Below, piece after piece: positions 1,271 to 21,988 of a stretch of DNA of 26,323 nucleotides. The position numbers and the translations under genes were made by a program. The stretch is from an uncultured Methylophilaceae bacterium. GTDB lineage: Bacteria; Pseudomonadota; Gammaproteobacteria; Burkholderiales; Methylophilaceae. The stretch lies in the NCBI GenBank assembly GCA_964466095.1, contig CAYXMC010000002.1, positions 1 to 26,323 on the forward strand, read 5' to 3'. Within the stretch, counting starts at the first letter, position 1; every line of letters begins with the position of its first letter. Below the pieces are notes generated by a model. That model made no database searches, was not told where the DNA came from, and saw only the letters and a list, made by a program, of their open reading frames with translations.

Positions 1271-2346
1271 TTAAGGTAAAGCTCGCTTTCCAGATAGCTT
1301 TTTTTGGCATGGCGCAGGCCAACAGCAATAGCTGCACCCACTGGCAGCGCTAGCAGGATGCCGGCAAAGCCGAACAACTGGCCGCCTGCTAGTAAGGCAA
1401 AGATCACGACGACAGGGTGCAGGCCGATACGATCACCTACCAGCAATGGGGTGAGTAAAAAGCCTTCAAGAACTTGCCCTACGCCAAACACGGCAAGCAC
1501 AGGCACGATCTGCCCCAGGCTGGAGAACTGCAAGGCCGCTGCCAGTACGGCGAGGATAATGCCGGTGCTGATGCCCAGATAAGGCACAAAGCCGAGCAAA
1601 CCGGCGATGAGGCCTATCGGCAGCGCCAACTCTAGTCCGGTGAACCATAAACTGGTGGCGTAAAAAGCGCTCATGAGCAACATCACGGATAGCTGCCCGC
1701 GCAGAAATTCGGCCAGCACCTGGTCGATTTCTCCGGCAATGGTCAGTGTTTTTTCATGCCATTTTCTGGGAATCAATTGAGAAATACGTGCCAGCATGCC
1801 GTGCCAGTCGCGCAGCAGATAAAACAGTACTACTGGCACCAGCAGCAGATTAACCAGCCAGGCGATCAGTGCAAGGCCGTGGCTGCTGACGGTGAGCAGG
1901 AATTGCCCGGCAAAATTGCTGGCGGTTTTCCAGTTCTTGGTGATGATGTCCTGTATCTGCACGGTATCAATTTCTAGTGTCACGCCAAAATGTCGCAGCA
2001 GCCATGGCTCCAGCTTGTCGTGCAGTGTGGTGATATAGCCAGGCAGGCGCTGGATGATGAGCATGATCTCTTTCTGGAACAGCGGCACCACGATAAACAG
2101 CAGCACGATTAGTATTCCTGCCAGCAAGAGCATGACCAGCACAGTGGCGAGGCTGCGGCCAACGCTGAACTTGCCCAGTTTGATGGTGCTGAGTGTATCC
2201 ACCAGTGGATTGCTGATATAAGCGAGGATAGCTGCCATCAAAAACGGCGAGAGTATGGGGAGCAATAGATACGCCAGCAGCAGGAATCCAGCAGTAAGAA
2301 GTATCAGTCTGTAGTCGGGTAAGAACTGTTTTTGTTGAGGATTCAT
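1267..2346 (-). CDS. AI-2E family (PerM-like) transporter
   Basis: Multi-TM protein with PFLMAAILAYISNPLVD, FLRGQL, GFVPYLG, LTPLLVGDRIGLHPV; ATGA overlap with hda. Confidence 0.9.
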   Translation of the reverse strand: MNPQQKQFLPDYRLILLTAGFLLLAYLLLPILSPFLMAAILAYISNPLVDTLSTIKLGKFSVGRSLATVLVMLLLAGILIVLLFIVVPLFQKEIMLIIQRLPGYITTLHDKLEPWLLRHFGVTLEIDTVQIQDIITKNWKTASNFAGQFLLTVSSHGLALIAWLVNLLLVPVVLFYLLRDWHGMLARISQLIPRKWHEKTLTIAGEIDQVLAEFLRGQLSVMLLMSAFYATSLWFTGLELALPIGLIAGLLGFVPYLGISTGIILAVLAAALQFSSLGQIVPVLAVFGVGQVLEGFLLTPLLVGDRIGLHPVVVIFALLAGGQLFGFAGILLALPVGAAIAVGLRHAKKSYLESELYLK

Positions 2347-2421
2347 CTCTTAATCCGTGCTGGCTTGGGGTAAAATTACACCTATTGTCCTAAATTCTTC
2401 TGTAGAAAGCGAGAACCCAAC

Positions 2422-3483
2422 TTGAATTCCCAACATTCCAACGGCGATTCATCCAATCAATCCATCAGCTACCGCGATGCCGGGGTGGATATTGAGGCGG
2501 GTGACGCGCTGGTCGAGAGAATCAAGCCATTTGCCAAGCGCACCATGCGCCCTGAAGTCATGGGTGGTATCGGCGGTTTCGGTTCGCTGTTCGAAGTACC
2601 CAAGAAGTTCAAGAACCCTATCCTTGTCTCTGGTACCGATGGTGTGGGCACCAAGCTCAAGCTGGCTTTTCAACTGAATAAGCATGACACCGTAGGTATT
2701 GATCTGGTGGCGATGAGTGTCAACGATATTCTTGTGCAGGGCGCTGAACCGCTTTTCTTCCTTGATTATTTTGCCTGCGGCAAGCTGGATGTAGATGCCG
2801 CTGCCCAAGTGATTCAGGGTATAGCACAGGGGTGCGAGCAATCCGGCTGTGCCTTGGTCGGCGGTGAAACTGCCGAAATGCCCGGCATGTACCCGCCGGG
2901 TGAATACGATTTGGCAGGCTTTGCAGTTGGTTGTGTTGATAAAGACGCCATCATCAATGGCAGCACTATTGCAGCGGGCGATGTGGTGTTGGGGCTGGCT
3001 TCCAGCGGTGCGCATTCCAACGGGTATTCGCTGATTCGCAAGTTGATCGATAAATCCGGTATCGACATGAACAGCGATTTCCACGGCAAGCCATTCCGTG
3101 ATGTGGTGATGGCGCCAACCCGTATCTACGTAAAACCGCTGCTCAAGCTGATTTCAGCAATGCCGGTCAAGGGTATGGCACACATCACTGGTGGCGGTAT
3201 TACCGAAAATATCCCGCGTGTATTGCCAGAAGGCCTGACCGCCGAGATCAAGCAGGGTAGCTGGGTGATGCCTGAGCTGTTCAAGTGGTTGCAGGCGCAG
3301 GGTAATGTGACCGATGACGAGATGCATCGCACCTTCAATTGCGGTATCGGCATGGCGGTAGTGGTGGCCAAAGAAAACGCAGAAGCCGCCATCAAGCTTT
3401 TGCAGGCTGAAGGCGAACAGGTTTGGCAGATCGGTCATATCCGCGCTTCGCAGGCTGGTGAAGCGCCAACGGTAGTGGTTTAA
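2422..3483 (+). CDS. purM: Phosphoribosylformylglycinamidine cyclo-ligase (AIR synthetase)
   Basis: [57 protein letters not shown] start; no ATG precedes the conserved SYRDAG. Confidence 0.97.
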
Positions 3484-3549
3484 AAGAGTCGCGGAAACTA
3501 GGCGCTGAAATTGACTCTAACTTTGGTGTTCAATCACAGCGTTTTGTTT

Positions 3550-4230
3550 ATGAAAAAACTAGTTAGCCTTGTTTTGTTGATGGTCGCATTGCCTGTATGG
3601 GCAGCCCCCAAACAGGTGGAAGTGGTTTATCAGGCTACCCGTAACGGGCAGCCGTTTGCCACCATCACCGAGACCTACAAGCAGGAAAATGGTCGCTACA
3701 AGATTGAAAGCGTGACGCAAGGTATAGGCGTCTATGCCTTGTTCGGCAAGCGTGTGCTGAGCAGTGAGGGTGAAGTGACAGCCGAAGGCCTGAAGCCCAG
3801 CCATTTTGAACTGCATCAGGGCGATAATGCCAAAAAATCCCTGATTACCGATTTTAACTGGGCGGCCAATCAACTCATCATGAAAATCAAGGGCAACTCG
3901 GTAACGGCCAATCTGGAGCCCGGTACGCAGGACCTTAGCAGCTTGCTTTACCAGTTCATGTTCGTGCAGCCAACAGGAGAAGATTTCAGTCTGCCGGTAA
4001 CCACGGGCAAGAAGCTGCGGGTTTACCAGTACAAGGTGACCGAGCGTGATGCCGAGCTTGAAGTGCCTGCGGGCAAGTTCAAGACCATGCATCTGGTGGA
4101 TAGTCATACTGAAGACCAAAAAGAACTATGGCTGGGTACGGAGAGCCATCACCTGCCTGTAAGGTTGGTGATGCGCGATGAGAATGGCGCAAAAATCGAG
4201 CAGAGCCTGACTAGTATCAATGTCCAATAA
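3550..4230 (+). CDS. DUF3108 family periplasmic protein with cleavable signal peptide
   Basis: MKKLVSLVLLMVALPVWA|APK signal peptide; SEGEVTAEGLKP, FNW, GTQDLSSLLYQF, VTTGKKLRVY, LWLGTESHHLPVRL. Start at ATG 3550. Confidence 0.8.
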   Translation: MKKLVSLVLLMVALPVWAAPKQVEVVYQATRNGQPFATITETYKQENGRYKIESVTQGIGVYALFGKRVLSSEGEVTAEGLKPSHFELHQGDNAKKSLITDFNWAANQLIMKIKGNSVTANLEPGTQDLSSLLYQFMFVQPTGEDFSLPVTTGKKLRVYQYKVTERDAELEVPAGKFKTMHLVDSHTEDQKELWLGTESHHLPVRLVMRDENGAKIEQSLTSINVQ

Positions 4231-5278
4231 TGTGTTTCGCCTCTGGAACCAATACATCTCCAAGCGCCTGCTGCTGGCGCTGCTAGTCTCTCTACTTTTG
4301 CATTTGTATACACTGGGTGGGCTGGATATCAGCCTGCCTGACCTTGATTTATCCGAAGATGTAGTTGAAGTGACCCTGGCGCCACCTGTGATTAAACCGG
4401 CACCACCGTTGCCGCCACAAAAGGCAAAGCCCAAGGCCAAGACAGAAAAACCGGCAGCCAAACCAAAGGCCGAGCCTCTACCAGCGCAGCCGGCTGAACA
4501 ACCGCAATTAGAGCCCTTGGTCGAGCCACAACCGGCCTCCGCAGAGACTGCATCAGTGGCGGAAGAAGCGGCCGTAGAACAGGAGTCGAGTCAGCCGCAG
4601 GCCTTGCAGGAAGAAGAAGCCGTAGCTAGCCGTTTCAAGCCAGCTACCTATATCGAAACAGTGTTCAAAGCGAGCAGCGGGGGCGTGAATGGCGTTTCGC
4701 GCATCAATTACAAAGCAAATCCGGATGGCACTTACACCTTGCGTAGCGAGGCTGAGGTCAAGGGCTTTGCCGGTTTGTTTTTCGGCAAGCTGTTGCAAAC
4801 CAGTGAAGGTACTGTAGGGAGTCGCGGCTTGAAGCCGGGTAAGTATTTTTACCAGTATGGCAGCAACGAGGACAAAATCAGGCGCGCCAGTTTTGATTGG
4901 GTGAGCGGCAAGCTGACCATGGAAGTGGGCAAGAAGGCTGCCACGGTTGCCCTGCAGGAGGGCACGCAGGATCTGTTGAGTTTTATGTATCAGTTTATGT
5001 TTGTGCCGCCACTGGACGACATGCATCTGCTAGTGACTGATGGCCGCAAGCTACGTAGTTATGCCTATACCTTTGAAGGTGAGGAAGAGCTAGCCACCGA
5101 GCTGGGCGTTATCAAGGCGCTGCATATCGGCAAGACCAGTAGCGAAGGAGAGGAAAAAACCGAGGTTTGGCTGGGTGTCGATTACAATTACCTGCCTGTG
5201 CGCATACGCAAGACCGATAAGGAAGGCCGTGTGATCGACCAGGTGGTCACCAGCATCCGCTCCGATATGTTTAATTAG
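4220..5278 (+). CDS. Inner-membrane-anchored DUF3108 protein with TonB/TolA-like N-terminus and Pro/Lys/Glu linker
   Basis: TM LLLALLVSLLLHLYTLGG; low-complexity linker aa ~54-137; C-terminal domain shares SEGTVGSRGLKP, FDW, GTQDLLSFMYQF, VTDGRKLRSY, VWLGVDYNYLPVRI with the upstream paralog; 11-nt overlap. Confidence 0.8.
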   Translation: MSNNVFRLWNQYISKRLLLALLVSLLLHLYTLGGLDISLPDLDLSEDVVEVTLAPPVIKPAPPLPPQKAKPKAKTEKPAAKPKAEPLPAQPAEQPQLEPLVEPQPASAETASVAEEAAVEQESSQPQALQEEEAVASRFKPATYIETVFKASSGGVNGVSRINYKANPDGTYTLRSEAEVKGFAGLFFGKLLQTSEGTVGSRGLKPGKYFYQYGSNEDKIRRASFDWVSGKLTMEVGKKAATVALQEGTQDLLSFMYQFMFVPPLDDMHLLVTDGRKLRSYAYTFEGEEELATELGVIKALHIGKTSSEGEEKTEVWLGVDYNYLPVRIRKTDKEGRVIDQVVTSIRSDMFN

Positions 5279-5320
5279 CATTCCTTTTAACCGAACAGAA
5301 GTGATCAAGAAAAGAAGTTT

Positions 5321-6583
5321 ATGAACCAGAATTTATTACGCCTGACCGCCATGGCACTCGCTGACGTGCTTTCCGGCACAGGCCCTGCCGATGCCAAGCT
5401 TGGCTTTTTCTTTCGCAATAACCGCGAGCTGGGCAATAAGGACAGGGGCTTTGTCGCCGAGACCATTTATGGCGTGCTACGCCGCAAGCGCTTGCTGGCT
5501 TATCTGGCAGATGGCGAAGATCCGCGCAAGCTGCTGGTGGCTTATTTGGTGCGTGTACAGGGTGCCAGCCTGCGCGAGCTTGACGAGGTGTTGAACAAGC
5601 AGCAAAAGGAATGGGCGCAGGAGATCAAGGCCAAGAATACGGATAACCTGACACTGGCCGAACAGGCTGATGTGCCGGACTGGCTGTGGGGCAAGCTGGT
5701 GGCACAATACGGCGATGAGCAGGCGCTAACTATCGCCCGTAGCATGCAGCAGCCAGCTACGCTGGATTTGCGTGTGAATACCATCAAGGCCAGCCGCGAG
5801 GAAGTGCTGGAGATATTTGACCGCGAGAACACGCAGGGTAACAAGAGATTTACGCCTACTCCATATTCACAGGTGGGTATACGGCTGCCGCAGCGCATGA
5901 GCATCAACCGCCATGTACTCTTTACCGATGGCAAGATCGAGGTGCAGGACGAAGGCAGCCAGCTGCTGAGCTATCTGGTAGCGCCGAGGCGCGGAGAGAT
6001 GATCGCTGATTTCTGTGCTGGTGCTGGCGGCAAGACCTTGGCCTTGGGTGCGCTAATGCGTAATACCGGCCGTTTGTATGCTTTTGATGTTTCCGAGAAG
6101 CGTCTGCACAATCTGGGACAGCGACTCAAGCGTTCAGGGCTATCCAACTTGCATAGCCAAGTCATCAGTAGCGAGGCTGATCCCAAGCTCAAGCGACTGA
6201 ATGGAAAGTTCGACCGTGTGCTGGTAGATGCGCCTTGTAGCGGCCTAGGCACCATACGCCGCAACCCGGATCTGAAATGGCGGCAAACCGAGCAGGATGT
6301 GCAGGAACTGAATGCCAAGCAGGCAGCGATACTGGCTCGCGCGGCCAAGCTGGTGAAGGCTGGTGGCAAGCTGGTTTATGCGACTTGCAGCCTTTTGCAG
6401 GAAGAAAACGAGCAGATTGCCCAGGCTTTCTTGGCAGCGCATCCTGATTTCAAGCTGCTGCCTGCCAACGAAATATTGAAGCAGCAGAATATCGAGCTGG
6501 ATACGGGCGAATACCTCAAGCTGTTGCCGCATATCCATCAGACCGATGGTTTTTTTGCAGCGGTGTTTGAAAAAGCTGCTTGA
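5321..6583 (+). CDS. RsmB/NOP (NOL1/NOP2/Sun) family RNA m5C methyltransferase
   Basis: VQDEGSQ, motif I DFCAGAGGKT, motif IV VLVDAPCSGLG, motif VI LVYATCS, TDGFFAA. N-terminus differs from canonical RsmB, so no symbol is given. Confidence 0.9.
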   Translation: MNQNLLRLTAMALADVLSGTGPADAKLGFFFRNNRELGNKDRGFVAETIYGVLRRKRLLAYLADGEDPRKLLVAYLVRVQGASLRELDEVLNKQQKEWAQEIKAKNTDNLTLAEQADVPDWLWGKLVAQYGDEQALTIARSMQQPATLDLRVNTIKASREEVLEIFDRENTQGNKRFTPTPYSQVGIRLPQRMSINRHVLFTDGKIEVQDEGSQLLSYLVAPRRGEMIADFCAGAGGKTLALGALMRNTGRLYAFDVSEKRLHNLGQRLKRSGLSNLHSQVISSEADPKLKRLNGKFDRVLVDAPCSGLGTIRRNPDLKWRQTEQDVQELNAKQAAILARAAKLVKAGGKLVYATCSLLQEENEQIAQAFLAAHPDFKLLPANEILKQQNIELDTGEYLKLLPHIHQTDGFFAAVFEKAA

Positions 6584-6643
6584 TGAAGAGATTGGCCTGC
6601 ATTTCGCTTTTAATTTAAGCGTTTAATCGATTTGGGAGCCAGC

Positions 6644-7879
6644 ATGAAATTGCCATCTTTAAACCAACAAATTCTAATCGGTGCAATCCTAGGTTTGTTG
6701 CTGGGCTGGTGGCTTTCAGGTCTGGAGCCCGAGGGCAAGGATGCCGGTATTTACGCGACTACGCTGGTGGGCGGTGTCTTTATCGACCTCTTGAAAATGG
6801 TGTTGATTCCACTGGTGTTCACCTCGATTGCTGTGGGTATCGCCAATTTGCAAGCACACCAGCAAATACACAAAGTATGGATATCTACGCTGGTGTTTTT
6901 TCTTTGTTCGATGGCGCTGGCGATATTGCTGGCTTTTGCAGCAAGTCATATTTTCAAGCCGGGTGAAGGTCTGCATCTGGCCATGTTTGCCGATGCCATG
7001 CAAAACTTTGAGGCCAAACAGTTAACACTGAGCGAATTCTTTTCACAGTTTTTGCATGGCCTGTTCGTGAATCCATTTGCTGCTCTATCACAGGGTAATG
7101 TGCTGGCGGTGGTGATCTTTGCATTGTTTCTTGGTATTGCATTGGTGATAGGTGGCGACCGATATAAAAATATATTGATATTGCTGCAAGAGTTTCTTGA
7201 GCTAGTGATGCGTATCGTTGGCTGGGTCATGCGGCTTGCACCGTTTGGTATTGCTGCCTTGTTGGCTAAACTGGTGGCAACTCAGGATATGAGTTTTTTT
7301 GCCACCTTGGGCAAGTTTGTCGCTGTAGTAGTGGGTACCACTTTGCTACATGGCGTAGTGGTGTTACCGCTTATCCTGTTTTTGTTCACTGGCAAATCAC
7401 CACTGTGGTTCTGGCGTGGCGCACGTGAGGCACTCATGACTGCGTTTGCTACCAGTTCCAGTTCTGCTACGTTGCCGATTACCTTGCGCTGCGCAGAACA
7501 ACATCTGCATGTACGGCGAGAAATCGCGGGTTTTGTGATTCCTCTGGGAGCTACCATCAATATGGATGGTACGGCACTTTATGAAGCGGCCGCGGCACTT
7601 TTTATTGCTCATCTGGTTGGTATAGAGTTGAACGCTATGCAGCAAATGGTGGTGTTTTTCACGGCCATGATCGCAGCGATGGGCGCGCCAGGTATCCCCA
7701 GCGCCGGCATGGTCACCATGGTCATGGTGTTGCAGTCAGTAGGCCTGCCAGCGGAAGCGATTGCCATCCTGCTGCCCATGGATAGATTGCTGGATACCTT
7801 GCGCACAACAGTCAATGTGGAAGGCGATATGGTGGGGAGCTTGGTTGTGCAAAAGCTGGTGAAGCCAGCCGACTCTTAG
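6644..7879 (+). CDS. Dicarboxylate/amino acid:cation symporter (DAACS, GltP/GltPh-like)
   Basis: FIDLLKMVLIPLVF, AFATSSSSATLP, LGATINMDGTALY, GAPGIPSAG, DRLLDTLRTTVNVEGD; GGGAG Shine-Dalgarno before ATG 6644. Confidence 0.92.
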   Translation: MKLPSLNQQILIGAILGLLLGWWLSGLEPEGKDAGIYATTLVGGVFIDLLKMVLIPLVFTSIAVGIANLQAHQQIHKVWISTLVFFLCSMALAILLAFAASHIFKPGEGLHLAMFADAMQNFEAKQLTLSEFFSQFLHGLFVNPFAALSQGNVLAVVIFALFLGIALVIGGDRYKNILILLQEFLELVMRIVGWVMRLAPFGIAALLAKLVATQDMSFFATLGKFVAVVVGTTLLHGVVVLPLILFLFTGKSPLWFWRGAREALMTAFATSSSSATLPITLRCAEQHLHVRREIAGFVIPLGATINMDGTALYEAAAALFIAHLVGIELNAMQQMVVFFTAMIAAMGAPGIPSAGMVTMVMVLQSVGLPAEAIAILLPMDRLLDTLRTTVNVEGDMVGSLVVQKLVKPADS

Positions 7880-8436: not shown

Positions 8437-8847
8437 TCAAGCCTCTGGCGTATCGGTATCATCATCGCCCTTGTTTTTCAGGTCTCTGGCGATTTTAGCC
8501 AACGCTTCATAACGCTGCCTGAACTCATCCAGCTCCGTTTCTTCCAGTTCTTCCAGATCCAGCAGAGCATTATGTGCGCCTTTGGTAGCTCGTATCAGTT
8601 CGTCCAGCTTGATCTGAATGGCCTCTGTATCACGGTTCTGGGTACTCTGGATCAAAAATACCATCAGGAAGGTGATGATGGTAGTTGCCGTGTTGATCAC
8701 AAGTTGCCAGGTATCACTGAACCCGAAGATGGGGCCGGTGATTACCCAGAGCAGGATAGTGGCAACTGCCAGTGAAAACGTGAGCGGCCTGCCGGCGATG
8801 CGGGCCGTGAATTTGGCAAAACGCGAATACCAATTGGTCTGGATCAT
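8437..8847 (-). CDS. Low-affinity iron permease (Fet4-like) family protein
   Basis: WVITGPIFGFSDTWQLVINTATTIITFLMVFLIQSTQNRDTEAIQIKLDELIRA family signature; ATG 8847 overlaps the RND stop as ATGA. Confidence 0.85.
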   Translation of the reverse strand: MIQTNWYSRFAKFTARIAGRPLTFSLAVATILLWVITGPIFGFSDTWQLVINTATTIITFLMVFLIQSTQNRDTEAIQIKLDELIRATKGAHNALLDLEELEETELDEFRQRYEALAKIARDLKNKGDDDTDTPEA

Positions 8848-11800
8848 GTCTTTTTCCACAAACGTTGCACGCCGTGCATAGCTAATGAATAAACCGCTGG
8901 TACAACGACTAGCGTAAGCAGGGTAGATGAAATCATGCCGCCGATGACCGCAACAGAAAGCGGGCCATTGGTTTCGGCGCCTGCGCCTATGCCGAAAGCA
9001 GCTGGCAGCAGGGCGAGGATAATCGTCATGGATGTCATCAAGACAGGTCGCAAACGTATCGGGCAGGCTTGCAACAGGGCATCGTTGATAGAGGCACCCT
9101 TGTCGCGTAATTGGTTGGTGAGGTCAACCAGCAGGATCGAGTTCTTGGCGACCAGGCCGATGAGCAGCACCAAACCTATCATTGAGAAGATGTTGAGCGA
9201 ATTGCCTGTGAGCCAGAGTGCGACCACGCCACCTATGATGGCCAGCGGTTGTGCCAGCATGATGATGAACGGTTGCAGGAAAGAGTTGAACTGACTTGCC
9301 AGCACCATGTAGAGCAGGATCAGCGCCAGCATGAAGATGAAAGAGATGTTCTTGAAAGTTTTGGCGAACTCTTCAGCCTGACCGGAGAACTTGGTCTTGT
9401 AGCCGGCTGGCAGTATCTCTTCGGCAGCTTTGTTAACATGGCTGATAGCCTCGCCCAGCGGTATGGACGGGTTGTTGTAAAGGTTTGCCGCATATTGCAG
9501 GTCGAAGCGGCCGATGACTGCTGCGCCCAATTTCTGCTTGAAGCTGGCGATACTGTCCAGCCTGACCAGATCGCCATTACTGGTGCGCAGATAGATTTTG
9601 GCAAGATCGTCAACATGCTGAATGCTGCCTTCCTTGGCCTTGATACGGATATCGTAACGCTGGCCATCGCCCGGCTCGTCGTTGTAGCGGGCGATATCTA
9701 CACCGCCAGCATAGAGGCTGACAGCGGTTGCCAGATCATTGGCACTGATGCCAAGGCTGGCGGCACGCAGGCGGTCAATCTTCATTTCCACTTGGGGTAG
9801 ATCAAGCTGAACGTCGATATCCACCTTACCCATACCGGGAATATCAGCCAGCTTCTTTTGTATGGCCTTGGCATACTGGCCGACCTCATCCAGCTTGGGG
9901 CCGGTGATATTAAACTGCAATTTTTCTGAGCGCTGGCCGCGCACCATGGAGACTGGCGCGGGGAAGGCGCGCACTCCCGGAATCTGCTCCAGCTCTTCTT
10001 TTAGTTTGTCTACAAACACTTTTTGCGACATGGAGCGCTGCTTTTTATCCTTGAGGCGGATATTAATATTGCCTTGATTAACTTGGCCTTTTTGCCCTGC
10101 ACCCACCGTGGTGAAGAAGCTGGCAATCTGGTCCATATGGGTGAGCAAGACTTTTTCTATCAGTTCGGCACGGGTATTGGTGTATTCCAGGCTGGAACCC
10201 AGCGGAGTCTTGAACGAAATGACAAAGCGTCCCTCGTCTGCTTCCGGAACGAACTCTTTCTGTACGGCACCAAAAAAGAACTTGCTGCTGACGACTACCA
10301 GTATGGTCAGCACGACGACTTTCCACCGATGGTTGAGCGTCCATCGCAACAGCGCAGCATAGAAATGATCCATGCCTTTGAAGAAGCGATCCAGCGCGTA
10401 GTAAAGCCTGCCATGTTTGCTGCTGGCACTGAGGTAGCGTGAGCACAGCATGGGCGTGAGTGTCAGCGAAACCATGAGCGAGACCAGTACGCCGCAAGTG
10501 ACCACCACCGAGAAGGACTGGAAAAATTTGCCCATGATGCCATCCATGAAAATCACCGGTGCAAAGATACACACCAATGAGAGCGAAGCGGCGATGACAG
10601 CAAACGTGACCTCGCGACTACCTTCTATGGCGGCTTTCACTGAATCAATGGCGTTACCAGCTTGCATGCTCATGTGGCGGTAAATATTCTCCAGCACCAC
10701 GATAGCGTCATCCACGACCACACCGATCAACAGCAACAGGGCGAGCAAGGTCATGCTGTTGAATGTGAATCCGGAGAAATACATGACGGCGACTGCACCC
10801 AGTAGCGAGACCGGGATTGCGGTGGCGATGATGAGGGTGGAGCGTATCGAGCGCAGGAACAACCAGACAATGAGAGCTGCCAATATCGTGCCTTCAAACA
10901 AGTGCTCTTGCAGTGACTTCACCATTTCCTTGATGAAGGTGGCTTCGTTGGATGAGGTTTCTATCCAGAGCCCGGGCGGCAGGTTGGGGCGTATTTCCTC
11001 ATTCAGCCTGCGCTCTACTTCGCTGATGATATCGACGGTGTTGGCGTTGGGGATCTTGATGATACCTATGCCCACTGTGGGCTGGCCGTTAAAATTGGCG
11101 AACTGCCGGAAATCTCCCAGACCATCCTCAATCTCGGCAATCTCCTTGAGTTTGATGGGGGCGCCATCGCGGTAAGCCACCACCATGTCGGCAAATTCGC
11201 GAAAGTTGTGGTATTCAAGATCCAGCTTCATCAGATATTCGCGCTTTTCGCTGACCAGAAAGCCGCCAGGTACTTGCACATGCTCACGTTCCAGTGCGTT
11301 CACTACATCTGAGGCGACGATTTTGTTAGCGGCCATGCGCTCCGGCAGCAGATTGATACGTATGGTGCGGTCGCGGCGGCCGCCCAGTCTAACCTCGCCA
11401 ACACCGTTGATGGTTTCCAGTTTTTTCTTAAGGGTATTCCATGCGTACAGATTCAGCTGTTGAATCGTGCGGTCACCACCTAACGCCAGCCACAAAACAG
11501 GCTCGGCGTTGGTTTCTGCCTTTTGTACGATGGGTGGATCGGTGTCTTTGGGCAGGCGTCGTAGTACTTGATTTACCTTGGCTTGCACCTCGGTATAAGC
11601 GACATCAATGTTTTTTTCCAGCTTGAAGGTGATCACGATGACGGAAACGCCGGGCGATGAACTGGACTGGATATGCTCAATGCCCGGCGTCGTATTGATG
11701 GCAGATTCAATAATGCCGGTCACGCTAGTATCAACAATATCCGGGTTGGCCCCCTTGAGCGAGGTGGTGACAGTGATAATCGGGAATTCGATAGCGGGAA

Positions 11801-11909
11801 AGCGGTCAACGGCGATGCGCTGGTAGCTGATGATACCGAACAGCACCAGCAGCCCGGAGACCATCCAGGCCAGTACATGGCGTTTGATGGATATTTCAGG
11901 CAAGTTCAT
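8844..11909 (-). CDS. RND efflux permease (AcrB/HAE1-type)
   Basis: 1021 aa; DRFPAIEFP, proton-relay GVVVDDAIVVLEN (TM4), GLVAKNSILLVD (TM10), RLRPVLMTS (TM11). Confidence 0.95.
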   Translation of the reverse strand: MNLPEISIKRHVLAWMVSGLLVLFGIISYQRIAVDRFPAIEFPIITVTTSLKGANPDIVDTSVTGIIESAINTTPGIEHIQSSSSPGVSVIVITFKLEKNIDVAYTEVQAKVNQVLRRLPKDTDPPIVQKAETNAEPVLWLALGGDRTIQQLNLYAWNTLKKKLETINGVGEVRLGGRRDRTIRINLLPERMAANKIVASDVVNALEREHVQVPGGFLVSEKREYLMKLDLEYHNFREFADMVVAYRDGAPIKLKEIAEIEDGLGDFRQFANFNGQPTVGIGIIKIPNANTVDIISEVERRLNEEIRPNLPPGLWIETSSNEATFIKEMVKSLQEHLFEGTILAALIVWLFLRSIRSTLIIATAIPVSLLGAVAVMYFSGFTFNSMTLLALLLLIGVVVDDAIVVLENIYRHMSMQAGNAIDSVKAAIEGSREVTFAVIAASLSLVCIFAPVIFMDGIMGKFFQSFSVVVTCGVLVSLMVSLTLTPMLCSRYLSASSKHGRLYYALDRFFKGMDHFYAALLRWTLNHRWKVVVLTILVVVSSKFFFGAVQKEFVPEADEGRFVISFKTPLGSSLEYTNTRAELIEKVLLTHMDQIASFFTTVGAGQKGQVNQGNINIRLKDKKQRSMSQKVFVDKLKEELEQIPGVRAFPAPVSMVRGQRSEKLQFNITGPKLDEVGQYAKAIQKKLADIPGMGKVDIDVQLDLPQVEMKIDRLRAASLGISANDLATAVSLYAGGVDIARYNDEPGDGQRYDIRIKAKEGSIQHVDDLAKIYLRTSNGDLVRLDSIASFKQKLGAAVIGRFDLQYAANLYNNPSIPLGEAISHVNKAAEEILPAGYKTKFSGQAEEFAKTFKNISFIFMLALILLYMVLASQFNSFLQPFIIMLAQPLAIIGGVVALWLTGNSLNIFSMIGLVLLIGLVAKNSILLVDLTNQLRDKGASINDALLQACPIRLRPVLMTSMTIILALLPAAFGIGAGAETNGPLSVAVIGGMISSTLLTLVVVPAVYSLAMHGVQRLWKKT

Positions 11910-13012
11910 GATTGATCGGCCTTGCTTGCTTTTTTGGCGTCAGTGGCTAGTTTGACCTTGGCTTTATCGCTCAGAAAAGCAGCACCATCAACCGCGATGG
12001 TTTCACCGCTTTCTAAGCCTTCAATAATTTGCACCTTGCCTGCCTGTCGCAGTCCGGTTTTGACGATGCGTTGCTCGGCCTGGTTGTCCTTGATGATATA
12101 AACCACTTCACCAGCCGGACGCAGGACAACACTCTGTTCAGGAACGATCACCGCTGCAGCCTGTTCACCTAATATTACGCTGCCATTGACGCTAGCACCC
12201 GGCTGCCAACCAGGCTGGTCTACAACATCGGCGATCACATCCACGGAACGGTTGCTGGCGCCTATCAGTGGTTTGAGTTCGCGGATGGTAGCCACCACTT
12301 CGTTATCCGCCGTGGGCGTGGTGAGGCGTACTTTCAGCCCTGGCTGCAGTTTGCTGGCGATGGATTCCGGAAACGGCAAGTGCGCACGCAAGCGTTGCTT
12401 GCTGACAATCTGCACCAGCGGGTCGCCTATCTTGACGTAGTCGCCGGGGGCAACAATCTGCTTTTCTATAATGCCGTCAACAGGTGCGATCAGTGTGGTT
12501 TTGCTGCCAGTATGCTCTATGCTCGCCAGCCTTGCCTTGGCGGCATCAAGTTGCTGTTTGAGTGCAGTTTGCTGGGTTGCGACATCGTCCAGCGCATTCT
12601 GTGAAATGAAGTTTTTTTGTACCAGTGTCTGGTTACGCTCTAGTGTCCGCCCCTGATTGGCAAGTAGTGCTTCTACCCGCGCGACTTCTGCTTGTGCTTC
12701 CTTGCGTTGCAGGGAGTAGTCGGTGCCATCAAGCATGGCAATAATATCGCCCTTTCTGACGCTCTGGCCCGGATGCACCAATACCTTGAGCACGCGCCCC
12801 GGTACTTCAGCCGCAATCGTTGGATCTATCAGGCCCTCCAGACTGCCGACTGTTTCTTCAGTTGCTTCCAGTTTGGTCGTCTGCGCTGTGTAGATGCTGA
12901 CCAGTGTGGCGGAGGGGCCTTTCTTCTTTTCCTCGGCAGCTTGCTGTTTTGAGCAGGCGCTACTACCAAGCAGTATTGCCAAGGTAAGCAAGTAAATGCA
13001 TGAACGAAGCAT
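11906..13012 (-). CDS. RND periplasmic adaptor (MFP), probable lipoprotein
   Basis: Lipobox-like LLGSSA|C, IAAEVPGRV..V.V..GQ.V.KGD, hairpin coiled coil, LIAPVDGII, VPEQSVV, V.TGLR..G.V.I.EGL..GE; ATGA overlap with the RND gene. Confidence 0.93.
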   Translation of the reverse strand: MLRSCIYLLTLAILLGSSACSKQQAAEEKKKGPSATLVSIYTAQTTKLEATEETVGSLEGLIDPTIAAEVPGRVLKVLVHPGQSVRKGDIIAMLDGTDYSLQRKEAQAEVARVEALLANQGRTLERNQTLVQKNFISQNALDDVATQQTALKQQLDAAKARLASIEHTGSKTTLIAPVDGIIEKQIVAPGDYVKIGDPLVQIVSKQRLRAHLPFPESIASKLQPGLKVRLTTPTADNEVVATIRELKPLIGASNRSVDVIADVVDQPGWQPGASVNGSVILGEQAAAVIVPEQSVVLRPAGEVVYIIKDNQAEQRIVKTGLRQAGKVQIIEGLESGETIAVDGAAFLSDKAKVKLATDAKKASKADQS

Positions 13013-14643: not shown

Positions 14644-16002
14644 TCAAAACTCATCTGCATCGTCGCTATCCTTGCTCAAGCCTAGCTTGGACAAGCGGTA
14701 GCGCAGGGTGCGGAAACTCACCCCCAGTAATTTCGCGGCAGCAGTCTTGTTTTGTCGCGTTTTTTCCAGTGCCTGCAAGATGGCCTGCTTCTCTATGGTT
14801 TCCAGATATTCAGGCAAGGGCAGGCCTTTGGCATCCACGGTGATCTGGTTAACTCGGAGATCGCTTTCCAGCAACAAGTCTTCCACTTCTATGGTCTGAC
14901 CATCGCATAGGGCCAGTGCTCGTTCCAGTGCGTTTTCCAACTCTCGCACGTTGCCCGGAAAGCCATGTCTTGTCAGCACATTCATGGCTTTTTCCGAGAT
15001 TTTTGGGGTGCTGCTGCCTAGCAGCCGGCATTGTTTTTCCAACAAGTACTGCGCCAGTAGCGGAATATCTGTCGGCATTTCGCGCAAGGCTGGCATTTTC
15101 AACTCAATGACGTTCAGTCGGTAATACAGATCTTGGCGAAACTGCCCACTTTCCATCATGGTGGAAAGATTGCGGTGAGTGGCGCTGATGATACGCACGT
15201 CGATGGGTTCTTCCTGAGTGCTGCCAACCATGCGCACTTTCTTCTCCTGTATTGCACGCAGCAGCTTCACCTGCATGGCCAGTGGCAGGTCTGCCACTTC
15301 ATCAAGAAACAGAGTGCCGCTGTTAGCGGCATGGAACATGCCTTCTTTATCTTGCAATGCCCCGGTGAACGCGCCTTTCTTGTAACCGAAGAATTCACTT
15401 TCCATCAGGTTTTCCGGAATAGCGCCGCAGTTCACGGCGATAAATGGGCCATCGCGTCTGGAGCCATTGAGGTGGATTAAACGGGCTGCCAACTCTTTGC
15501 CGCTGCCAGATTCACCGCTGATATACACAGGTGCCTGGCTACGCGCCAGTTTTTCTATGAGGGTGCGCACCTGTTTGATGGGCGCAGAGTTACCTATCAT
15601 GGTCAGGGCGCTGGCCAGAGGTTTTTCCGTGGTGGAAAGTTTCATGGCTGACTGGATAAGTGGGCGCAGCTGCTTGAGTGAGATGGGTTTGGTCAGGTAA
15701 TCGAAGGCACCGGCTTTGAGTGCAGAAACAGCATTTTCGGGACTGCCAAAAGCGGTAATCACGGCAACTGGTAAGCCAGCGTAATGGTTGCTGATGTGGC
15801 GCACGAGATCCAAGCCGTTACCATCTGGCAGGCGCATATCAGTAATGCATAGGGCAAACTCCCGTTGTGACAGCAGGAATTTGGCATCACTGAGGTTACC
15901 TGCGCTCTCAGCTTCGATTCCCATGCGCTCCAGTGTGAGCACCAGCAGTTCCCGAATATCGGTTTCATCATCCACTATCAGGCAATTGGCTTTTTTTGTC
16001 AT
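14644..16002 (-). CDS. pilR: Sigma54-dependent response regulator, PilR-like
   Basis: Receiver (LIVDDE, CITDMRLPDGNG), AAA+ (GESGSGKE, GAFTGA, LFLDEV), C-terminal HTH (NKTAAAKLLGVSFRTLRYRL); coupled to the PilS-like kinase. Confidence 0.85.
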   Translation of the reverse strand: MTKKANCLIVDDETDIRELLVLTLERMGIEAESAGNLSDAKFLLSQREFALCITDMRLPDGNGLDLVRHISNHYAGLPVAVITAFGSPENAVSALKAGAFDYLTKPISLKQLRPLIQSAMKLSTTEKPLASALTMIGNSAPIKQVRTLIEKLARSQAPVYISGESGSGKELAARLIHLNGSRRDGPFIAVNCGAIPENLMESEFFGYKKGAFTGALQDKEGMFHAANSGTLFLDEVADLPLAMQVKLLRAIQEKKVRMVGSTQEEPIDVRIISATHRNLSTMMESGQFRQDLYYRLNVIELKMPALREMPTDIPLLAQYLLEKQCRLLGSSTPKISEKAMNVLTRHGFPGNVRELENALERALALCDGQTIEVEDLLLESDLRVNQITVDAKGLPLPEYLETIEKQAILQALEKTRQNKTAAAKLLGVSFRTLRYRLSKLGLSKDSDDADEF

Positions 16003-17606
16003 TTTTGCGCGATCTTGTTGAGCTGCAGGGAAAATACACTACCGCTTTCTGCTGCAACATATTTGAGGGTGGCGCCGTTAGCTTCGCATAATTCTCTGGC
16101 GATATATAGCCCTAAGCCGGTGCCTGTGGATTCAGTGGTAAAGAATGGTTCAAACAAGTGCTGTCGTATTTCGATGGGTATGCCCGGGCCGTCATCTACT
16201 ACCTCGACTTGTATGTTGCTTGAGTCTGCTACAGCAACAACGCGTACGTTCAGGCTGTTTGCTGTATGTTTGCTGTGGCGCCAGCCATTGCGGCAAAGGT
16301 TCCACAGTATCTGGTGCAAATGGCGTTTGTCGAAGCTGATGTGGAGTGGGGTACTCCCGTTCTGCAGGCGAAAACCATCGTAAGTCACTTTTTCTGTCTG
16401 GCAGAACTGCTCGTGAAATTCATCCAAGAATTCGCAAAGGTCGATGGTTTCCTGATTCGTACGATCACGTCGGTTTAATTCAAGAATATCTTTTACCATC
16501 TGGTCCATGCGTTGCACGTTATCGGAGATGATTTGAAACATGCGTCGAGATGAGGCATCTTGATGGTCATCTTCTTGTAGCAACTGGTTGGCGTGGCTGA
16601 TTGCACTGAGCGGATTACGAATCTCATGGGCAATATTGGCTGTGAGTCTGCCCAGTGCGGCCAGTTTTATTTGCTGGGCTTGTATCTGCATCTGGCTCCA
16701 GTCTTCAATAAAGATAACAGCTCCTTGCTTACGGTCTGTGCCTACCGGCATAAAGCGTAGTCTCAATTCACGATCCCGCCAGTTAAATTTTTGTGCATTC
16801 CTCGTACTGGTGAAGGTGTTTTCCACCCAATCTCTCATGAGTTGGGCAAGCTCTGGTGCGCATTCATCAAGCGTCTTGCCATACCAGGCTTTTTTGCCCA
16901 GATAGAGCAGACCTTCTGCCTGCACATTGTGGTGGCGCACCGTGTAATCTTTGTCTACAACGAGCACACCATCTTGCATTTCCTGTGTGATAAGCGCATT
17001 CACCTGCTCAAGGTTTTCAAGGTCCACTTCACGCTGGGTTGCCAGTGCCTCGCTTTGCAGAGTGCGCTTGGCAAAGCTATGCGCTAGCCAGGCGGTGGCA
17101 AAGCAGCTCAGGCAGAGCATCACGGCATGGGTGTAATCGTCGTAATGTTCTTGCCAGGAAACCAACTGGTAAGATTGCTCCAGCAATAGTGCGATGCTGG
17201 CCAGTGCAGCATAGAACAGGGCCAGGCGTCCTTGGCTAATAAGGCTGGCGGCTGCGATTGCTACCACCAGCAAAACGCCTATGCCGCTTTTGATTCCTCC
17301 TGCCGAGTACATGAGGGCAACGATGAAAACGATATCAGTAGAAGTTTGCTGAGTGACCTGTCGGTCAAAATCAGGCCAGCGCAACCAGGTAGTGCTTGTT
17401 GCGAGAAGGCTGAATATCAGATAACCGATAGCCAGCTTGAAATAGAGCGGGGCGTTGTAGTTTTCCCAAACAGGCTGCTCCCTGAATGCGAAATAAGAAA
17501 AGATGAAGATGACAGTGAGGCTAATCCGGTAGAGATTGTAATAGCCCATGGAGCGCCAGTAGGTGGCGCTGGCTGGCTGAAGGCTGATACCGGGGTTGTC
17601 AGTCAT
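15999..17606 (-). CDS. pilS: Sensor histidine kinase, PilS-like
   Basis: Multi-TM N-terminus (YNLYRI..., GIKSGIG.LL), PAS-like region, H-box AHEIRNPL, N-box QILWNLCRN, DDGPGI, LFEPFFTT, GTGLGL. Alternative start at 17627. Confidence 0.85.
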   Translation of the reverse strand: MTDNPGISLQPASATYWRSMGYYNLYRISLTVIFIFSYFAFREQPVWENYNAPLYFKLAIGYLIFSLLATSTTWLRWPDFDRQVTQQTSTDIVFIVALMYSAGGIKSGIGVLLVVAIAAASLISQGRLALFYAALASIALLLEQSYQLVSWQEHYDDYTHAVMLCLSCFATAWLAHSFAKRTLQSEALATQREVDLENLEQVNALITQEMQDGVLVVDKDYTVRHHNVQAEGLLYLGKKAWYGKTLDECAPELAQLMRDWVENTFTSTRNAQKFNWRDRELRLRFMPVGTDRKQGAVIFIEDWSQMQIQAQQIKLAALGRLTANIAHEIRNPLSAISHANQLLQEDDHQDASSRRMFQIISDNVQRMDQMVKDILELNRRDRTNQETIDLCEFLDEFHEQFCQTEKVTYDGFRLQNGSTPLHISFDKRHLHQILWNLCRNGWRHSKHTANSLNVRVVAVADSSNIQVEVVDDGPGIPIEIRQHLFEPFFTTESTGTGLGLYIARELCEANGATLKYVAAESGSVFSLQLNKIAQK

Positions 17607-17811
17607 GCTGCTTGCTGTGTTCTTCACAGCAGAAATATTGCTGGTTTACCAGCAGACTCTCACTTTTGGGCAAATGCACGCCACAGTGTTGGCAACGCAC
17701 CATGTCTTCGTTTTGGGGTTTGGCTTGCGGTGCTTGCAGGCTTTTGTTGTAGCGCTTGATGATGGTGATGATTAACCAGACACCGATTGCCAGTAAGATG
17801 ATTTTTCCCAT
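17599..17811 (-). CDS. PP0621 family small membrane-anchored zinc-finger protein
   Basis: N-terminal TM then MVRCQHCGVHLP..ES.......FCCEEH; overlaps the pilS start. Confidence 0.8.
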   Translation of the reverse strand: MGKIILLAIGVWLIITIIKRYNKSLQAPQAKPQNEDMVRCQHCGVHLPKSESLLVNQQYFCCEEHSKQHD

Positions 17812-17943: not shown

Positions 17944-18519
17944 ATGGCAACTGCACAGGAACTTTCTGATTTTCTCGCTCAAACTGAGCGCCGCGCATTC
18001 AAGCAGACCGTGTATGCCGTGCGTGATGAGCAGGCCGCCCTGGATATTGTGCAGGATGCCATGCTCAAATTGGCACAAAGCTATGCAGCCAAACCTGTGG
18101 CTGAGTATCCCATGCTGTTTCAGCGCATATTGCAAAATGCCATGCGTGATTATTGGCGTCGGCAGAAAGTGCGCAATCTGTGGACTACCTTGCTATCCTC
18201 ATTTGGTGGCAGTGAGGAAGATGACGATGAGCGTGACCCGCTGGAGACTTTGTCAGCCGGGGATGCGAACGAGGAGCCAGATGCACAGCTTGAGCGTAGC
18301 CAAACCATTGCTATAATTGAACAGGCTTTAGAAAAATTACCGGCACGTCAACGCGAGGCATTCATGCTGCGTTACTGGGAGGATATGGATGTAGCCGAAA
18401 CTGCTATGGTCATGGGTTGCTCCGAGGGGAGTGTCAAAACCCATTGCTCACGTGCAGTCCACAGTCTGGCCGCAATGCTTGAAAAGCGCGGTTTGCGAAC
18501 TGTCGGAGTCAAATCATGA
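17944..18519 (+). CDS. ECF RNA polymerase sigma factor
   Basis: Region 2 AALDIVQDAMLKL / LFQRILQNAMRDYWRR; region 4 LPARQREAFMLRYWEDMDVAETA..MGCSEGSVKTHCSRA. Confidence 0.93.
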   Translation: MATAQELSDFLAQTERRAFKQTVYAVRDEQAALDIVQDAMLKLAQSYAAKPVAEYPMLFQRILQNAMRDYWRRQKVRNLWTTLLSSFGGSEEDDDERDPLETLSAGDANEEPDAQLERSQTIAIIEQALEKLPARQREAFMLRYWEDMDVAETAMVMGCSEGSVKTHCSRAVHSLAAMLEKRGLRTVGVKS

Positions 18520-19312: not shown

Positions 19313-19318
19313 GCTATT

Positions 19319-19759: not shown

Positions 19760-20830
19760 CTATCGCCGTTCTATCCAGAACAGCATGAACAACCCTGCCA
19801 TCAGAAACAGCAGTGTAGGTACTACCGCACTGAACAAGGCAGACCAGTCATTCAGTAAGCCAAGGTGTACGAATACCCGGTTCAATACCTGATAGACGAT
19901 ACCGAGCATGATGCCAGCAAATATTTTGGCACTGGTGCCGCTGGAACGTTGCTGCAAAAAGCCGAATGGCAAAGCCAGCACGATCATCACCATACATGCA
20001 ACCGGATAAATCATTTTTGACCAAAGTGCGATCTCGTGACGGGAGGTTTTTTGCTTGTTGGCACTCAGGTGGCGGATAAAGAAGTAGAGATTCCAGGCCG
20101 ACATTTTTTCTGGCACTACCAGCAACACATTCAGCAGCTCTGGTCTTATCAGAGATTGCCAGTTGGCCTGAGGGAAAAAGTTGGAGCGTATCTTGTTATC
20201 TTCAAACAGCGTTTGTGTGACGCTGTGCAGGTTCCAACTCTTGCCTTCAAAACTGCCGCTTTTAGCATTGCTGATCGAGCGCAGACGAAAGTCTGGATCG
20301 AATTCATAAATGTGGATATTGAGCAGACCGGTGTCTGGTAGTACGTCCTCAACATTGACAAAGCTATTGCCGTCTTTAACCCAAAGGCCGGAGCGGAAAT
20401 CCTGAGCAACCACCGAGTCGGTGGCCTTGATGCGTATACGCTGGGCAGTCTTTTCGGTGTAGGGTGCTACCAGTTCTCCGACAAGAAACGTTACGACGGC
20501 AAAGATCAGTCCTACCCGCAGTAGTGCCATCGCAATTTTGTAGATTGATACGCCGCTGACACGCAGCACGATGAGCTCGGAATGGCGCGAGAACTGACTG
20601 AGGGCATACATGGTGCCGACCAGCACTGCGACCGGCACTACCTCATAGACATGACCAGGGGCGCTTAGAATGACGAAAAGCAAGACCTTGCCTATGCCAT
20701 AACTACCTTTGCCTATTCGCTCTAACTCCTGTATCAAGTCGAAGAAAGAGAACATTGCCAGCAGCGCCAGCATGATCAGCATGATGCTGGAGACGACTTC
20801 CTCGGCAAGGTAGCGGTTGAGTATCCTCAT
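19760..20830 (-). CDS. lptG: LPS export ABC transporter permease LptG
   Basis: MRILNRYLAEEV, SELIVLRVSGVS, GELVAP, GLWVKDGNSFVNV, YEIALW-like HEIALWSKMIYP; true start 20830 (ATGA overlap with lptF). Confidence 0.93.
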   Translation of the reverse strand: MRILNRYLAEEVVSSIMLIMLALLAMFSFFDLIQELERIGKGSYGIGKVLLFVILSAPGHVYEVVPVAVLVGTMYALSQFSRHSELIVLRVSGVSIYKIAMALLRVGLIFAVVTFLVGELVAPYTEKTAQRIRIKATDSVVAQDFRSGLWVKDGNSFVNVEDVLPDTGLLNIHIYEFDPDFRLRSISNAKSGSFEGKSWNLHSVTQTLFEDNKIRSNFFPQANWQSLIRPELLNVLLVVPEKMSAWNLYFFIRHLSANKQKTSRHEIALWSKMIYPVACMVMIVLALPFGFLQQRSSGTSAKIFAGIMLGIVYQVLNRVFVHLGLLNDWSALFSAVVPTLLFLMAGLFMLFWIERR

Positions 20831-21912
20831 TTGAACCACAACCTTGGTATCAGCGGCAATTGGAAAATGCGGCGATAGAACATGTAGATGGTTAACAGCA
20901 GGAAGAATGCATGTACCGGCCACAGACCAATAAACGGCGTGATCTTGCCTTGGGTCAGCCAGGCTTGCATGATGCTGAGAAGATTGTTGTAGATAACATA
21001 GATCATTAGCGCCATCATCAGGTTGGCAGAGCGGCCTGAGCGTGGATCTACAAAGCTCAAGGGAATGGCCAGCAAGACCAAGATAAAAGCCGAGATTGGA
21101 GTGGCCAGTCTCCATTGGATCTCGGCAATGTTGTCCAGACTATGGTTTTGCAGTAGTTCCAGACTGGCTCGCGACTGGGTGCTTGGGGGTTCTTCCTTGA
21201 CTTCGGCAGGTTCGATACGAATGGCGTAGCGCTCAAATTCAGTTGTTGAGAACTCAGGTGTGTTGGGTTTGCCTTCATAACGGCGACCATTTTCCATGAC
21301 TAGAAAACTGTCACCGTTTTCTTCGGAAACTCGGTGCCCCTTGGCTGCGACTACAATACCCAGACGTTTGTGTTGTATCGATTGTACAAAGATGTTTTTG
21401 ACAACATTGCCTAGCTGGTCAAAGCTTTCCACAAAGAATACGCGGTCAGCATGGCTTGATTCCTTAAAGACTCCAGGGCTGATCGATGCCAGTTCATCGC
21501 GGGCTTTGAGCTGGTTTTTGAAGTCAGCGCCTTTGTGGGTAGCCCAAGGGGTAACAAACAAGCTTAGGAAGGCAATCACCACAATCACAGGCAATGAGAA
21601 TGACAGCACAGGTTTGACCCAGCCGGCGATTCCCAGACCCGAGCTGAACCAGACCACCATCTCACTATCACGATGCCAGCGCGTGAGTGTTAGCAAGACG
21701 GCCAGAAATATCGTCAAAGAAAGTAGCATGGGCAGGAACCTGAGCATGCTGAAACCCAACAAAGTATTAATCGCATCGCTGGCAAGGCTGCCCTTTGCGG
21801 CTACGCCAATGTAATAGGCTACGCGCTGGGCAATAACAATTCCGACCAGAATCAGGAACGCGCCACCGGCGGTGCTGACCAGTTCGTGTTTGAGCGAGCG
21901 AGTAAATAACAT
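20827..21912 (-). CDS. lptF: LPS export ABC transporter permease LptF
   Basis: MLFTRSLKHEL, RWHRDSEMVVWFSSG, LFVTPW, PGVFKE, AEIQWRLATP, PRSGRSANL; true start ATG 21912. Confidence 0.93.
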   Translation of the reverse strand: MLFTRSLKHELVSTAGGAFLILVGIVIAQRVAYYIGVAAKGSLASDAINTLLGFSMLRFLPMLLSLTIFLAVLLTLTRWHRDSEMVVWFSSGLGIAGWVKPVLSFSLPVIVVIAFLSLFVTPWATHKGADFKNQLKARDELASISPGVFKESSHADRVFFVESFDQLGNVVKNIFVQSIQHKRLGIVVAAKGHRVSEENGDSFLVMENGRRYEGKPNTPEFSTTEFERYAIRIEPAEVKEEPPSTQSRASLELLQNHSLDNIAEIQWRLATPISAFILVLLAIPLSFVDPRSGRSANLMMALMIYVIYNNLLSIMQAWLTQGKITPFIGLWPVHAFFLLLTIYMFYRRIFQLPLIPRLWFK

Positions 21913-21930
21913 GTGAGTCGGTTTAGTGTT

Positions 21931-21958: not shown

Positions 21959-21988
21959 TCAGAAAGATTAATCGAAAGGATGTATTGC

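Follow-up and report, generated by a model that had tools for sequence, protein, structure and literature searches.

We analysed a 26,323-nucleotide stretch of DNA (the window) from an uncultured Methylophilaceae bacterium, contig CAYXMC010000002.1, in which two adjacent genes encode DUF3108 proteins. The second and longer of these appears, from its sequence, to encode an inner-membrane-anchored transducer of the TonB/TolA class that ends in a DUF3108 beta-spiral effector and would be coupled in trans to a motor; we put the probability of this reading at about 0.55. The long DUF3108 protein may be an unrecognised envelope-maintenance protein driven by the proton-motive force (PMF). An original prediction, made from the DNA letters, had described a basic N-terminus, S24 and H28 in an SLLLH motif, a VEVTL strand followed by APP, a linker rich in Pro and Lys and then in Glu, Gln and Ala, and a DUF3108 domain, and each of these lies where it was placed. 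The features of the long gene are as follows.

4220..5278, + strand: long DUF3108 gene, 352 aa plus stop, made up of an N-terminal module like that of TonB/TolA, then a linker, then a beta-spiral domain.
4220..4267, + strand: basic cytoplasmic N-terminus (predicted), aa 1-16, with R7, K15 and R16.
4268..4324, + strand: predicted transmembrane helix, aa 17-35, with S24 (4289-4291) and H28 (4301-4303) in SLLLH, and L35 at His+7.
4361..4378, + strand: candidate D-box or motor-box strand V48-V-E-V-T-L53, with alternating hydrophobics and then APP; VEVTL (aa 49-53) occupies 4364-4378.
4379..4648, + strand: disordered linker, presumed to span the periplasm, aa 54-143 (90 aa); predicted local distance difference test (pLDDT) score 53-71, the sole secondary structure being a helix at aa 130-136.
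4649..5263, + strand: DUF3108 C-terminal domain, aa 144-348, all-beta, with ~15 antiparallel strands (beta-spiral/LolA-like).

The N-terminal pattern is far beyond chance. The original prediction had named as a check the conservation of SxxxH and of a strand of the form [IV]x[VA]x[LM] among long DUF3108 homologs, and both turned out to be conserved. SxxxH is found in 118 of 118 close full-length homologs, and an alternating-hydrophobic strand occurs 20-22 residues after the His, ahead of the Pro-rich run, in 92 of the same 118; its consensus is [ILV]-E-[VA]-x-L at His+21 to His+25, followed by Pro. In an alignment of 59 sequences with a mean column identity of 37%, S24 and H28 are the only invariant columns of the N-terminal half. 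The transmembrane His was also counted by a hydropathy-based procedure that did not presuppose it, in three increasingly divergent sets of full-length proteins with a detectable transmembrane helix. A His lies inside the helix in 117/117, 121/121 and 40/40 members of these sets (278/278 in total), and a Ser stands at His-4 in 117/117, 121/121 and 21/40 (259/278 in total).

The periodicity of conservation along the transmembrane helix is strongest at exactly 100 degrees, and the conserved positions form a stripe of L(-11), A(-8), L(-7), S(-4), H(0), L(+3) and L/F(+7). Judged from the alignment, this stripe is a predicted helix-packing face that carries the S-H-L of the SHLS motif. That pattern, Ser-x3-His-x6-Leu-x3-Ser, is common to the transmembrane helices of TonB and TolA, in which its Leu and second Ser are less conserved; in structures determined by cryo-electron microscopy, TonB S16/H20 contact ExbB S34/W38 and TolA S18/H22 contact TolQ S28/W32 (PMC12215075). 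In the long DUF3108 protein, S24, H28 and L35 are the S, H and L, and a hydrophobic residue (L/F/V) is present at His+7 in 84/118 close homologs. The pair K15-R16 precedes His28 by 13 and 12 residues, which is the spacing from R7-R8 to H20 in E. coli TonB, and R/K at His-13 together with R at His-12 occurs in 79/118. We also considered an uncleaved signal peptide and rejected it, since the His is invariant, conservation is periodic along the helix and the strand is conserved too.

When 1.84 billion representatives were searched with a profile, 5837 relatives (representative clusters) were returned at E<=1e-3, short DUF3108 forms included. Almost all of the best 150 are 330-450 aa long and match from the N-terminus, which is the long architecture, and those among the 150 that do not have SxxxH are N-terminally truncated fragments. 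Acidovorax and Rubrivivax proteins recovered in a further profile search have often lost the Ser and have kept the transmembrane His, the alternating-hydrophobic strand and the Pro-rich run. Gene neighbourhoods were drawn from 80 loci (L001-L080) identified by a contig scan, in which the patterns were the most conserved C-domain peptides, so that the scan was confined to Methylophilaceae. Wider taxa were reached through the search of representatives and a second profile search, and 6 divergent loci were added, giving 86 in total.

The full-length protein matches the NCBIfam TonB model NF008084 (aa 12-181, E=6e-7). Because full-length matches could stem from Pro-rich composition, tests of similarity were restricted to the 50-aa N-terminal module. 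When a hidden Markov model (HMM) of this module built from 118 sequences was run against ~2480 sequences, E. coli TolA and TonB ranked second and third among the non-family matches. With an HMM of 180 sequences, a set picked with a transmembrane-His filter that is circular and too strict, E. coli TonB became the top non-family match (17.0 bits, E=5.8e-4, again in ~2480 sequences) and TolA the third; a single alignment to TonB spanned the RR pair, SxxxH and ISVTM. Comparison with hhalign gave P=2e-4 for TonB over 41 columns, with the S/H pair (TonB S16/H20) and the D-box (45-ISVTM-49) in register, and P=4.5e-5 for TolA, with the S/H pair aligned to TolA S18/H22. For ExbD and TolR, used as bitopic controls, P was 0.23 and 0.077, and the transmembrane helix was left unaligned. 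Among NCBIfam models run on isolated N-termini, tolA_full was the sole family matched by more than one member, and this was so in two independent sets (6/47 and 3/56); other TolA/TonB models received single matches. A Pfam scan of one N-terminal set (A4) produced scattered single matches only.

Low as it is in absolute score, the resemblance is specific to TonB and TolA and reproducible. Homology of the N-terminal module with domain I of TonB and TolA is the simplest reading of these alignments, the alternative being convergence on the same docking solution. For comparison, the TonB D-box (residues 45-49, ISVTM) is recruited as a strand by an ExbD dimer, every other side chain being hydrophobic and buried (PMC10907165), and a motor box was reported in 93% of 113 validated TolA sequences and, on the authors' further analysis, in all TonBs (PMC12204202). 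Searches of PDB sequences returned low-complexity mL40 only (E ~0.1) for the full protein and one spurious kinase (E=0.76) for the N-terminal profile. One Methylophilaceae locus (L063) has an open reading frame at 9111-9767 on the minus strand, opposite the rsmB position, that the N-terminal HMM scores at 11.4-11.8 bits, which places it between TonB and TolA or above them; this is probably an antisense frame that is hydrophobic by chance.

Beyond the module, a linker is present in all long homologs, though variable in length and composition. Here it is 21% Pro overall (aa 54-143), and it falls into a part with 33% Pro, 21% Ala and 19% Lys (aa 54-95) and a part with 21% Glu, 21% Ala and 12% Gln (aa 96-143). 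A match to TIGR02794 (TolA) covers aa 59-134 only and lies below the cutoff. The C-terminal domain is recognised by Pfam as PF11306, DUF3108 (aa 167-336; score 75.6 bits, gathering cutoff 26; E=6e-21), which was the only domain in the Pfam scan of the long protein; DUF1849, TonB_C and the TolA C-domain did not match. An AlphaFold2 model computed with the family alignment (mean pLDDT 81.7) has a helix at aa 15-32, disorder from aa 33 to ~143, and a C-domain that is mostly above 90.

In a Foldseek comparison with the PDB, the top match was Brucella EipB (DUF1849, 6ntr; E=4e-6, TM-score 0.55 normalised to the target). LolA, LolB, LppX, LprG and MucB/RseB followed, with many matches at E=5e-5 to 1e-2, the MucB/RseB structures being 6in8 and 6jau (E ~3-6e-4), and so did ependymin-related proteins and 3fzx; 3fzx has been cited as a YmcC-like fold for DUF3108 proteins (PMC4364669). 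Similarity to LolA and LolB is at the level of fold only (TM-score 0.3-0.5), with no match to their sequence families in the Pfam and NCBIfam scans. EipB is a periplasmic beta-spiral of 14 strands whose lumen is largely hydrophobic and which has a conserved C69-C278 disulfide; envelope integrity depends on it, and its loss is synthetically lethal with that of ttpA (10.1101/551135). The long DUF3108 protein contains no cysteine and hence does not have this disulfide. Pseudomonas PA0943 and PP_1663, of unconfirmed DUF3108 membership, are also described as periplasmic 14-strand beta-spirals, and their loss leads to secretin-stress, EDTA/paraquat, wound-fitness and cadmium phenotypes. In Neisseria gonorrhoeae, the 24-kDa DUF3108 protein NGO_1223 is found beside MlaC in a proteomics table (1.81 and 1.64; PMC6424457); if that table compares an mlaA mutant with the wild type, the entry hints that DUF3108 is connected with lipid homeostasis of the outer membrane.

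The original prediction, sound in the features it listed, overlooked a second DUF3108 gene immediately upstream, whose product is predicted to be soluble and whose translation is probably coupled to that of the long gene:

3550..4230, + strand: short DUF3108 paralog, 226 aa from the ATG at 3550; Pfam DUF3108, E=5e-24.
4220..4230, + strand: 11-nt overlap of the short-gene stop and the long-gene start, ATGTCCAATAA, running from ATG to TAA.

The short paralog has a Sec signal peptide (MKKLVSLVLLMVALPVWA|AP) without a lipobox, and is predicted to be a soluble periplasmic protein. In 64 of the 80 Methylophilaceae loci it immediately precedes the long gene, and the -11 spacing is identical in ~50 of the 64 loci that have both genes. 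Such a conserved 11-nt overlap suggests co-translation, and the two genes are probably translationally coupled. Over 204 aa the two beta-spirals share 37% identity (E=2e-38), which points to an origin by tandem duplication; the pair looks like a duplication that has been retained under translational coupling in Methylophilaceae. Only the long gene is present in other lineages.

No homolog of ExbB, ExbD, TolQ, TolR, TonB or TolA was found in the window by Pfam or by tblastn (best E=0.04), which agrees with the original prediction that the window holds no motor genes. The tblastn match at E=0.04, to the TonB C-domain at 18040-18219, falls inside the gene for an extracytoplasmic-function (ECF) sigma factor and was judged spurious. 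Since none of the 86 loci has a motor gene nearby, coupling of the long DUF3108 protein to ExbBD/TolQR motors would, we infer, be in trans. The Ser/His face of the transmembrane helix would dock against the outer surface of a pentamer of the ExbB or TolQ type whose gene lies at another place in the genome, and the VVEVTL strand would be captured by the periplasmic dimer of ExbD or TolR. Proton flow would drive a conformational or pulling cycle, relayed through the ~90-residue periplasm-spanning linker to the beta-spiral, which would bind either the soluble paralog or some hydrophobic ligand of the envelope, such as a lipid, the acyl chain of a lipoprotein or a molecule like lipopolysaccharide (LPS). 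Binding of such a ligand at or near the outer membrane could then contribute to envelope integrity. That the DUF3108 domain pulls on an outer-membrane cargo is pure conjecture. A broader proposal, possible though on the doubtful side, is that long DUF3108 proteins are widespread betaproteobacterial PMF transducers that share ExbBD or TolQR stators with TonB and TolA, with a LolA/EipB-like beta-spiral that moves or extracts a lipidic envelope component (lipoprotein, phospholipid or LPS-type), possibly in exchange with the soluble paralog.

A number of observations weigh against motor coupling. Neither ExbB nor ExbD, TolQ or TolR is encoded within 8-10 kb of the long gene in the 80 Methylophilaceae and 6 divergent loci, and the published von Willebrand factor A (vWA) transducers are, unlike it, syntenic with motors. 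The first Ser of the motif has been lost in Comamonadaceae-like members, the only ones to lose it; the final Ser of SHLS is not conserved, and the residue at His+11 is Leu. The VVEVTL region is not a strand in the AlphaFold2 monomer model, as would be expected if the strand forms only by addition to a partner. The TonB/TolA similarity scores low in absolute terms (17 bits; hhalign probability 47-69%), and the matched region is short and compositionally simple, which leaves room for convergence. The missing linkage to motor genes is no refutation of coupling, given that tonB and exbBD are unlinked in E. coli as well, but it takes away a kind of support that the vWA transducers enjoy.

A rival reading is a passive tether, in which the helix does no more than anchor a LolA/EipB-like periplasmic chaperone, the Ser/His face homo-oligomerises or binds some other complex of the inner membrane (machinery of the Lol, Mla, Lpt or Pqi type, for instance), the linker gives reach, and the PMF plays no part. 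The absence of nearby motor genes in the 86 loci, the dispensability of the Ser in one clade and the low absolute score of the TonB/TolA similarity are all compatible with a tether, as is the fact that soluble DUF3108/EipB-type proteins function without an anchor. A mere anchor, however, needs neither an invariant His on a conserved stripe nor a conserved strand at a fixed distance from it; moreover, the whole module is in register with TonB from the RR pair to the D-box, and the bitopic controls ExbD and TolR fail to match. We hold a passive tether to be rather unlikely.

The fold itself invites comparison with RseB/MucB. A beta-spiral of this kind might sense mislocalised lipid or LPS and use the Ser/His helix to relay this to a partner in the inner membrane, so that the protein would be an envelope-stress sensor; MucB/RseB structures are among the fold matches (6in8, 6jau), and envelope-stress phenotypes are reported for PA0943/PP_1663 and EipB. 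Such a role seems improbable, given that MucB is not the best fold match, that the cytoplasmic part comprises only ~16 residues and has no anti-sigma domain, and that the neighbours are purM and rsmB, with neither a sigma factor nor a protease consistently linked. Very improbable, in our judgement, is true orthology with TonB or TolA, in which a diverged protein would power TonB-dependent transporters or Tol-Pal. The N-terminal similarity speaks for it, and in one locus (L089) a TonB-dependent receptor is encoded two genes downstream, but the C-domain belongs to DUF3108 and matches neither TonB_C nor the C-domain of TolA, and its fold is a beta-spiral and not the small alpha/beta domain of TonB and TolA. 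The gene is in no tol-pal or exbBD cluster at any locus examined, and orthology was rejected on the C-domain and gene context.

To our knowledge, only a few systems are understood to deliver energy to the outer membrane, namely Ton, Tol-Pal, gliding motors and, as recently proposed, the vWA transducers. If motor coupling of the long DUF3108 protein is real, it adds to these a transducer with a LolA/EipB-like beta-spiral as its effector. Members of the LolA/EipB-like beta-spiral group have envelope-integrity, secretin-stress, EDTA and metal phenotypes without a known mechanism; envelope-integrity beta-spirals of the EipB/PA0943 type would gain an energised one, linked to the PMF. It would also follow that several clients compete for the same stators. 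The family is large, at 5837 representative clusters with short forms counted in, and the motor-coupled reading makes sharp predictions at the level of one residue (H28) and one gene (dependence on exbBD/tolQR). The literature searched on DUF3108 makes no mention of a TonB-like N-terminus, and sources that name family members call them only "DUF3108 domain-containing" or hypothetical; the TonB-like module therefore seems to be unrecognised. It does not amount to a third class of ExbBD/TolQR client, as had originally been suggested, since TonB-like transducers with a vWA C-domain have already been proposed (PMC12204202). A TonB-like anchor with a different C-domain has this 2025 precedent, and the long DUF3108 protein does not open a new category of machine.

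The window covers a housekeeping region of a Methylophilaceae-like betaproteobacterium. The best homolog of the long DUF3108 protein is 56% identical, and its named matches are from Methylophilaceae/Methylotenera. The gene order is Hda (-), an AI-2E transporter (-), purM (+), the short (3550-4230) and long (4220-5278) DUF3108 genes, rsmB (+) and an SDF symporter. Promoter and terminator scans detected no promoter-like or terminator-like site between the genes from purM through the DUF3108 pair to rsmB, and these scans, with Rfam, of positions 2300-6700 and of the window gave nothing informative. Linkage to purine genes recurs: purM stands with the DUF3108 genes in the window (2422-5278), purM and purN with the long gene in L086 (8316-11056), and purN with DUF3108 in L090 (3133-5068). 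PA0943 and PP_1663, judging by gene numbering, presumably adjoin purN-purM in the same manner. The functional reason for the linkage is not obvious.

In Acidovorax and in a related metagenomic contig (L089), the long DUF3108 gene stands alone and is followed by a DUF3567 gene of ~95 aa (L084 11562-11849 in Acidovorax; L089 9292-9588). In these lineages the transmembrane Ser is lost and the His is kept. The same pairing is reported for the Burkholderiales genes BTH_I0360 and BTH_I0359, and BTH_I0359 affects susceptibility to toxins of contact-dependent growth inhibition (PMC4364669). The TonB-dependent receptor (Plug plus barrel) two genes downstream of long DUF3108 in L089, at 9795-11939, is a single case and may be a coincidence.

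Elsewhere in the window, positions 17944-19756 hold a small cluster of an envelope-stress-like kind, of which the Pfam check covered the ECF sigma factor only:

17944-18519: ECF sigma factor (Pfam).
18516-18893: 125-aa open reading frame with a single transmembrane helix, overlapping the sigma gene, probably an anti-sigma factor.
18866-19312: 148-aa exported helical repeat protein.
19319-19756: 145-aa membrane protein.

It is followed by lptG and lptF (LPS export permeases, 19760-22068), which are divergent from pepA (21980-23485). The mechanical open reading frame calls overlap by ~290 nt, so the downstream permease gene (called at 19760..21115) probably starts later than listed. An efflux pump of the resistance-nodulation-division family with its membrane-fusion protein (AcrB/HlyD type, 8844-13012), and a PilS-like histidine kinase accompanied by a response regulator of the sigma-54 type (14644-17627), are ordinary neighbours and unrelated to the DUF3108 pair.

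The long DUF3108 protein can be compared with known systems from either end. At the level of fold only, it resembles LolA, LolB, LppX, LprG and RseB (MucB) in having a curved antiparallel beta-sheet, presumably with a hydrophobic cavity; it differs from them in that TM-scores are only 0.3-0.5, sequence-family membership is not shared and none of them has a TonB-like anchor. EipB (DUF1849, 6NTR), the best structural match, is a periplasmic beta-spiral like the DUF3108 domain (14-15 strands), but both EipB and PA0943/PP_1663 are soluble proteins whose signal peptide is cleaved, without a TonB-like module.

From the N-terminus, the resemblance is to E. coli TonB (b1252), which is also an N-in bitopic protein with RR 12-13 residues ahead of an essential transmembrane His, a Ser at His-4, an alternating-hydrophobic D-box (a candidate one in the long protein) 21-25 residues past the His and a proline-rich linker that spans the periplasm; its gene, too, is unlinked to motor genes. 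Unlike TonB, the long protein ends in a DUF3108 beta-spiral of ~205 aa in place of TonB_C, has a soluble paralog of this domain encoded alongside it, and is associated with a TonB-dependent receptor at one locus only. With TolA it shares an SHLS-type transmembrane helix, the best hhalign P (4.5e-5), the commonest NCBIfam match of the isolated N-terminus, a candidate motor-box strand (SIDAVMV in TolA; IDAVL/IEARL in the family) and a theme of envelope integrity. It departs from TolA in lying outside a tolQRA-tolB-pal cluster, in its unrelated C-domain, and in a domain II that is Pro-rich/acidic and disordered where that of TolA is long-helical. The vWA-type TonB-like transducers (Williams-Jones et al. 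2025, PMC12204202) have vWA where the long protein has a DUF3108 beta-spiral, and the taxonomic ranges differ, that of the long protein being Betaproteobacteria; their genes adjoin tolQ/tolR-like motor genes, as the long DUF3108 gene never does in the loci examined. What the two have in common is a design: an SHLS helix, a motor box (a candidate one in the long protein), a linker of ~100 residues and a C-domain that is neither that of TonB nor that of TolA.

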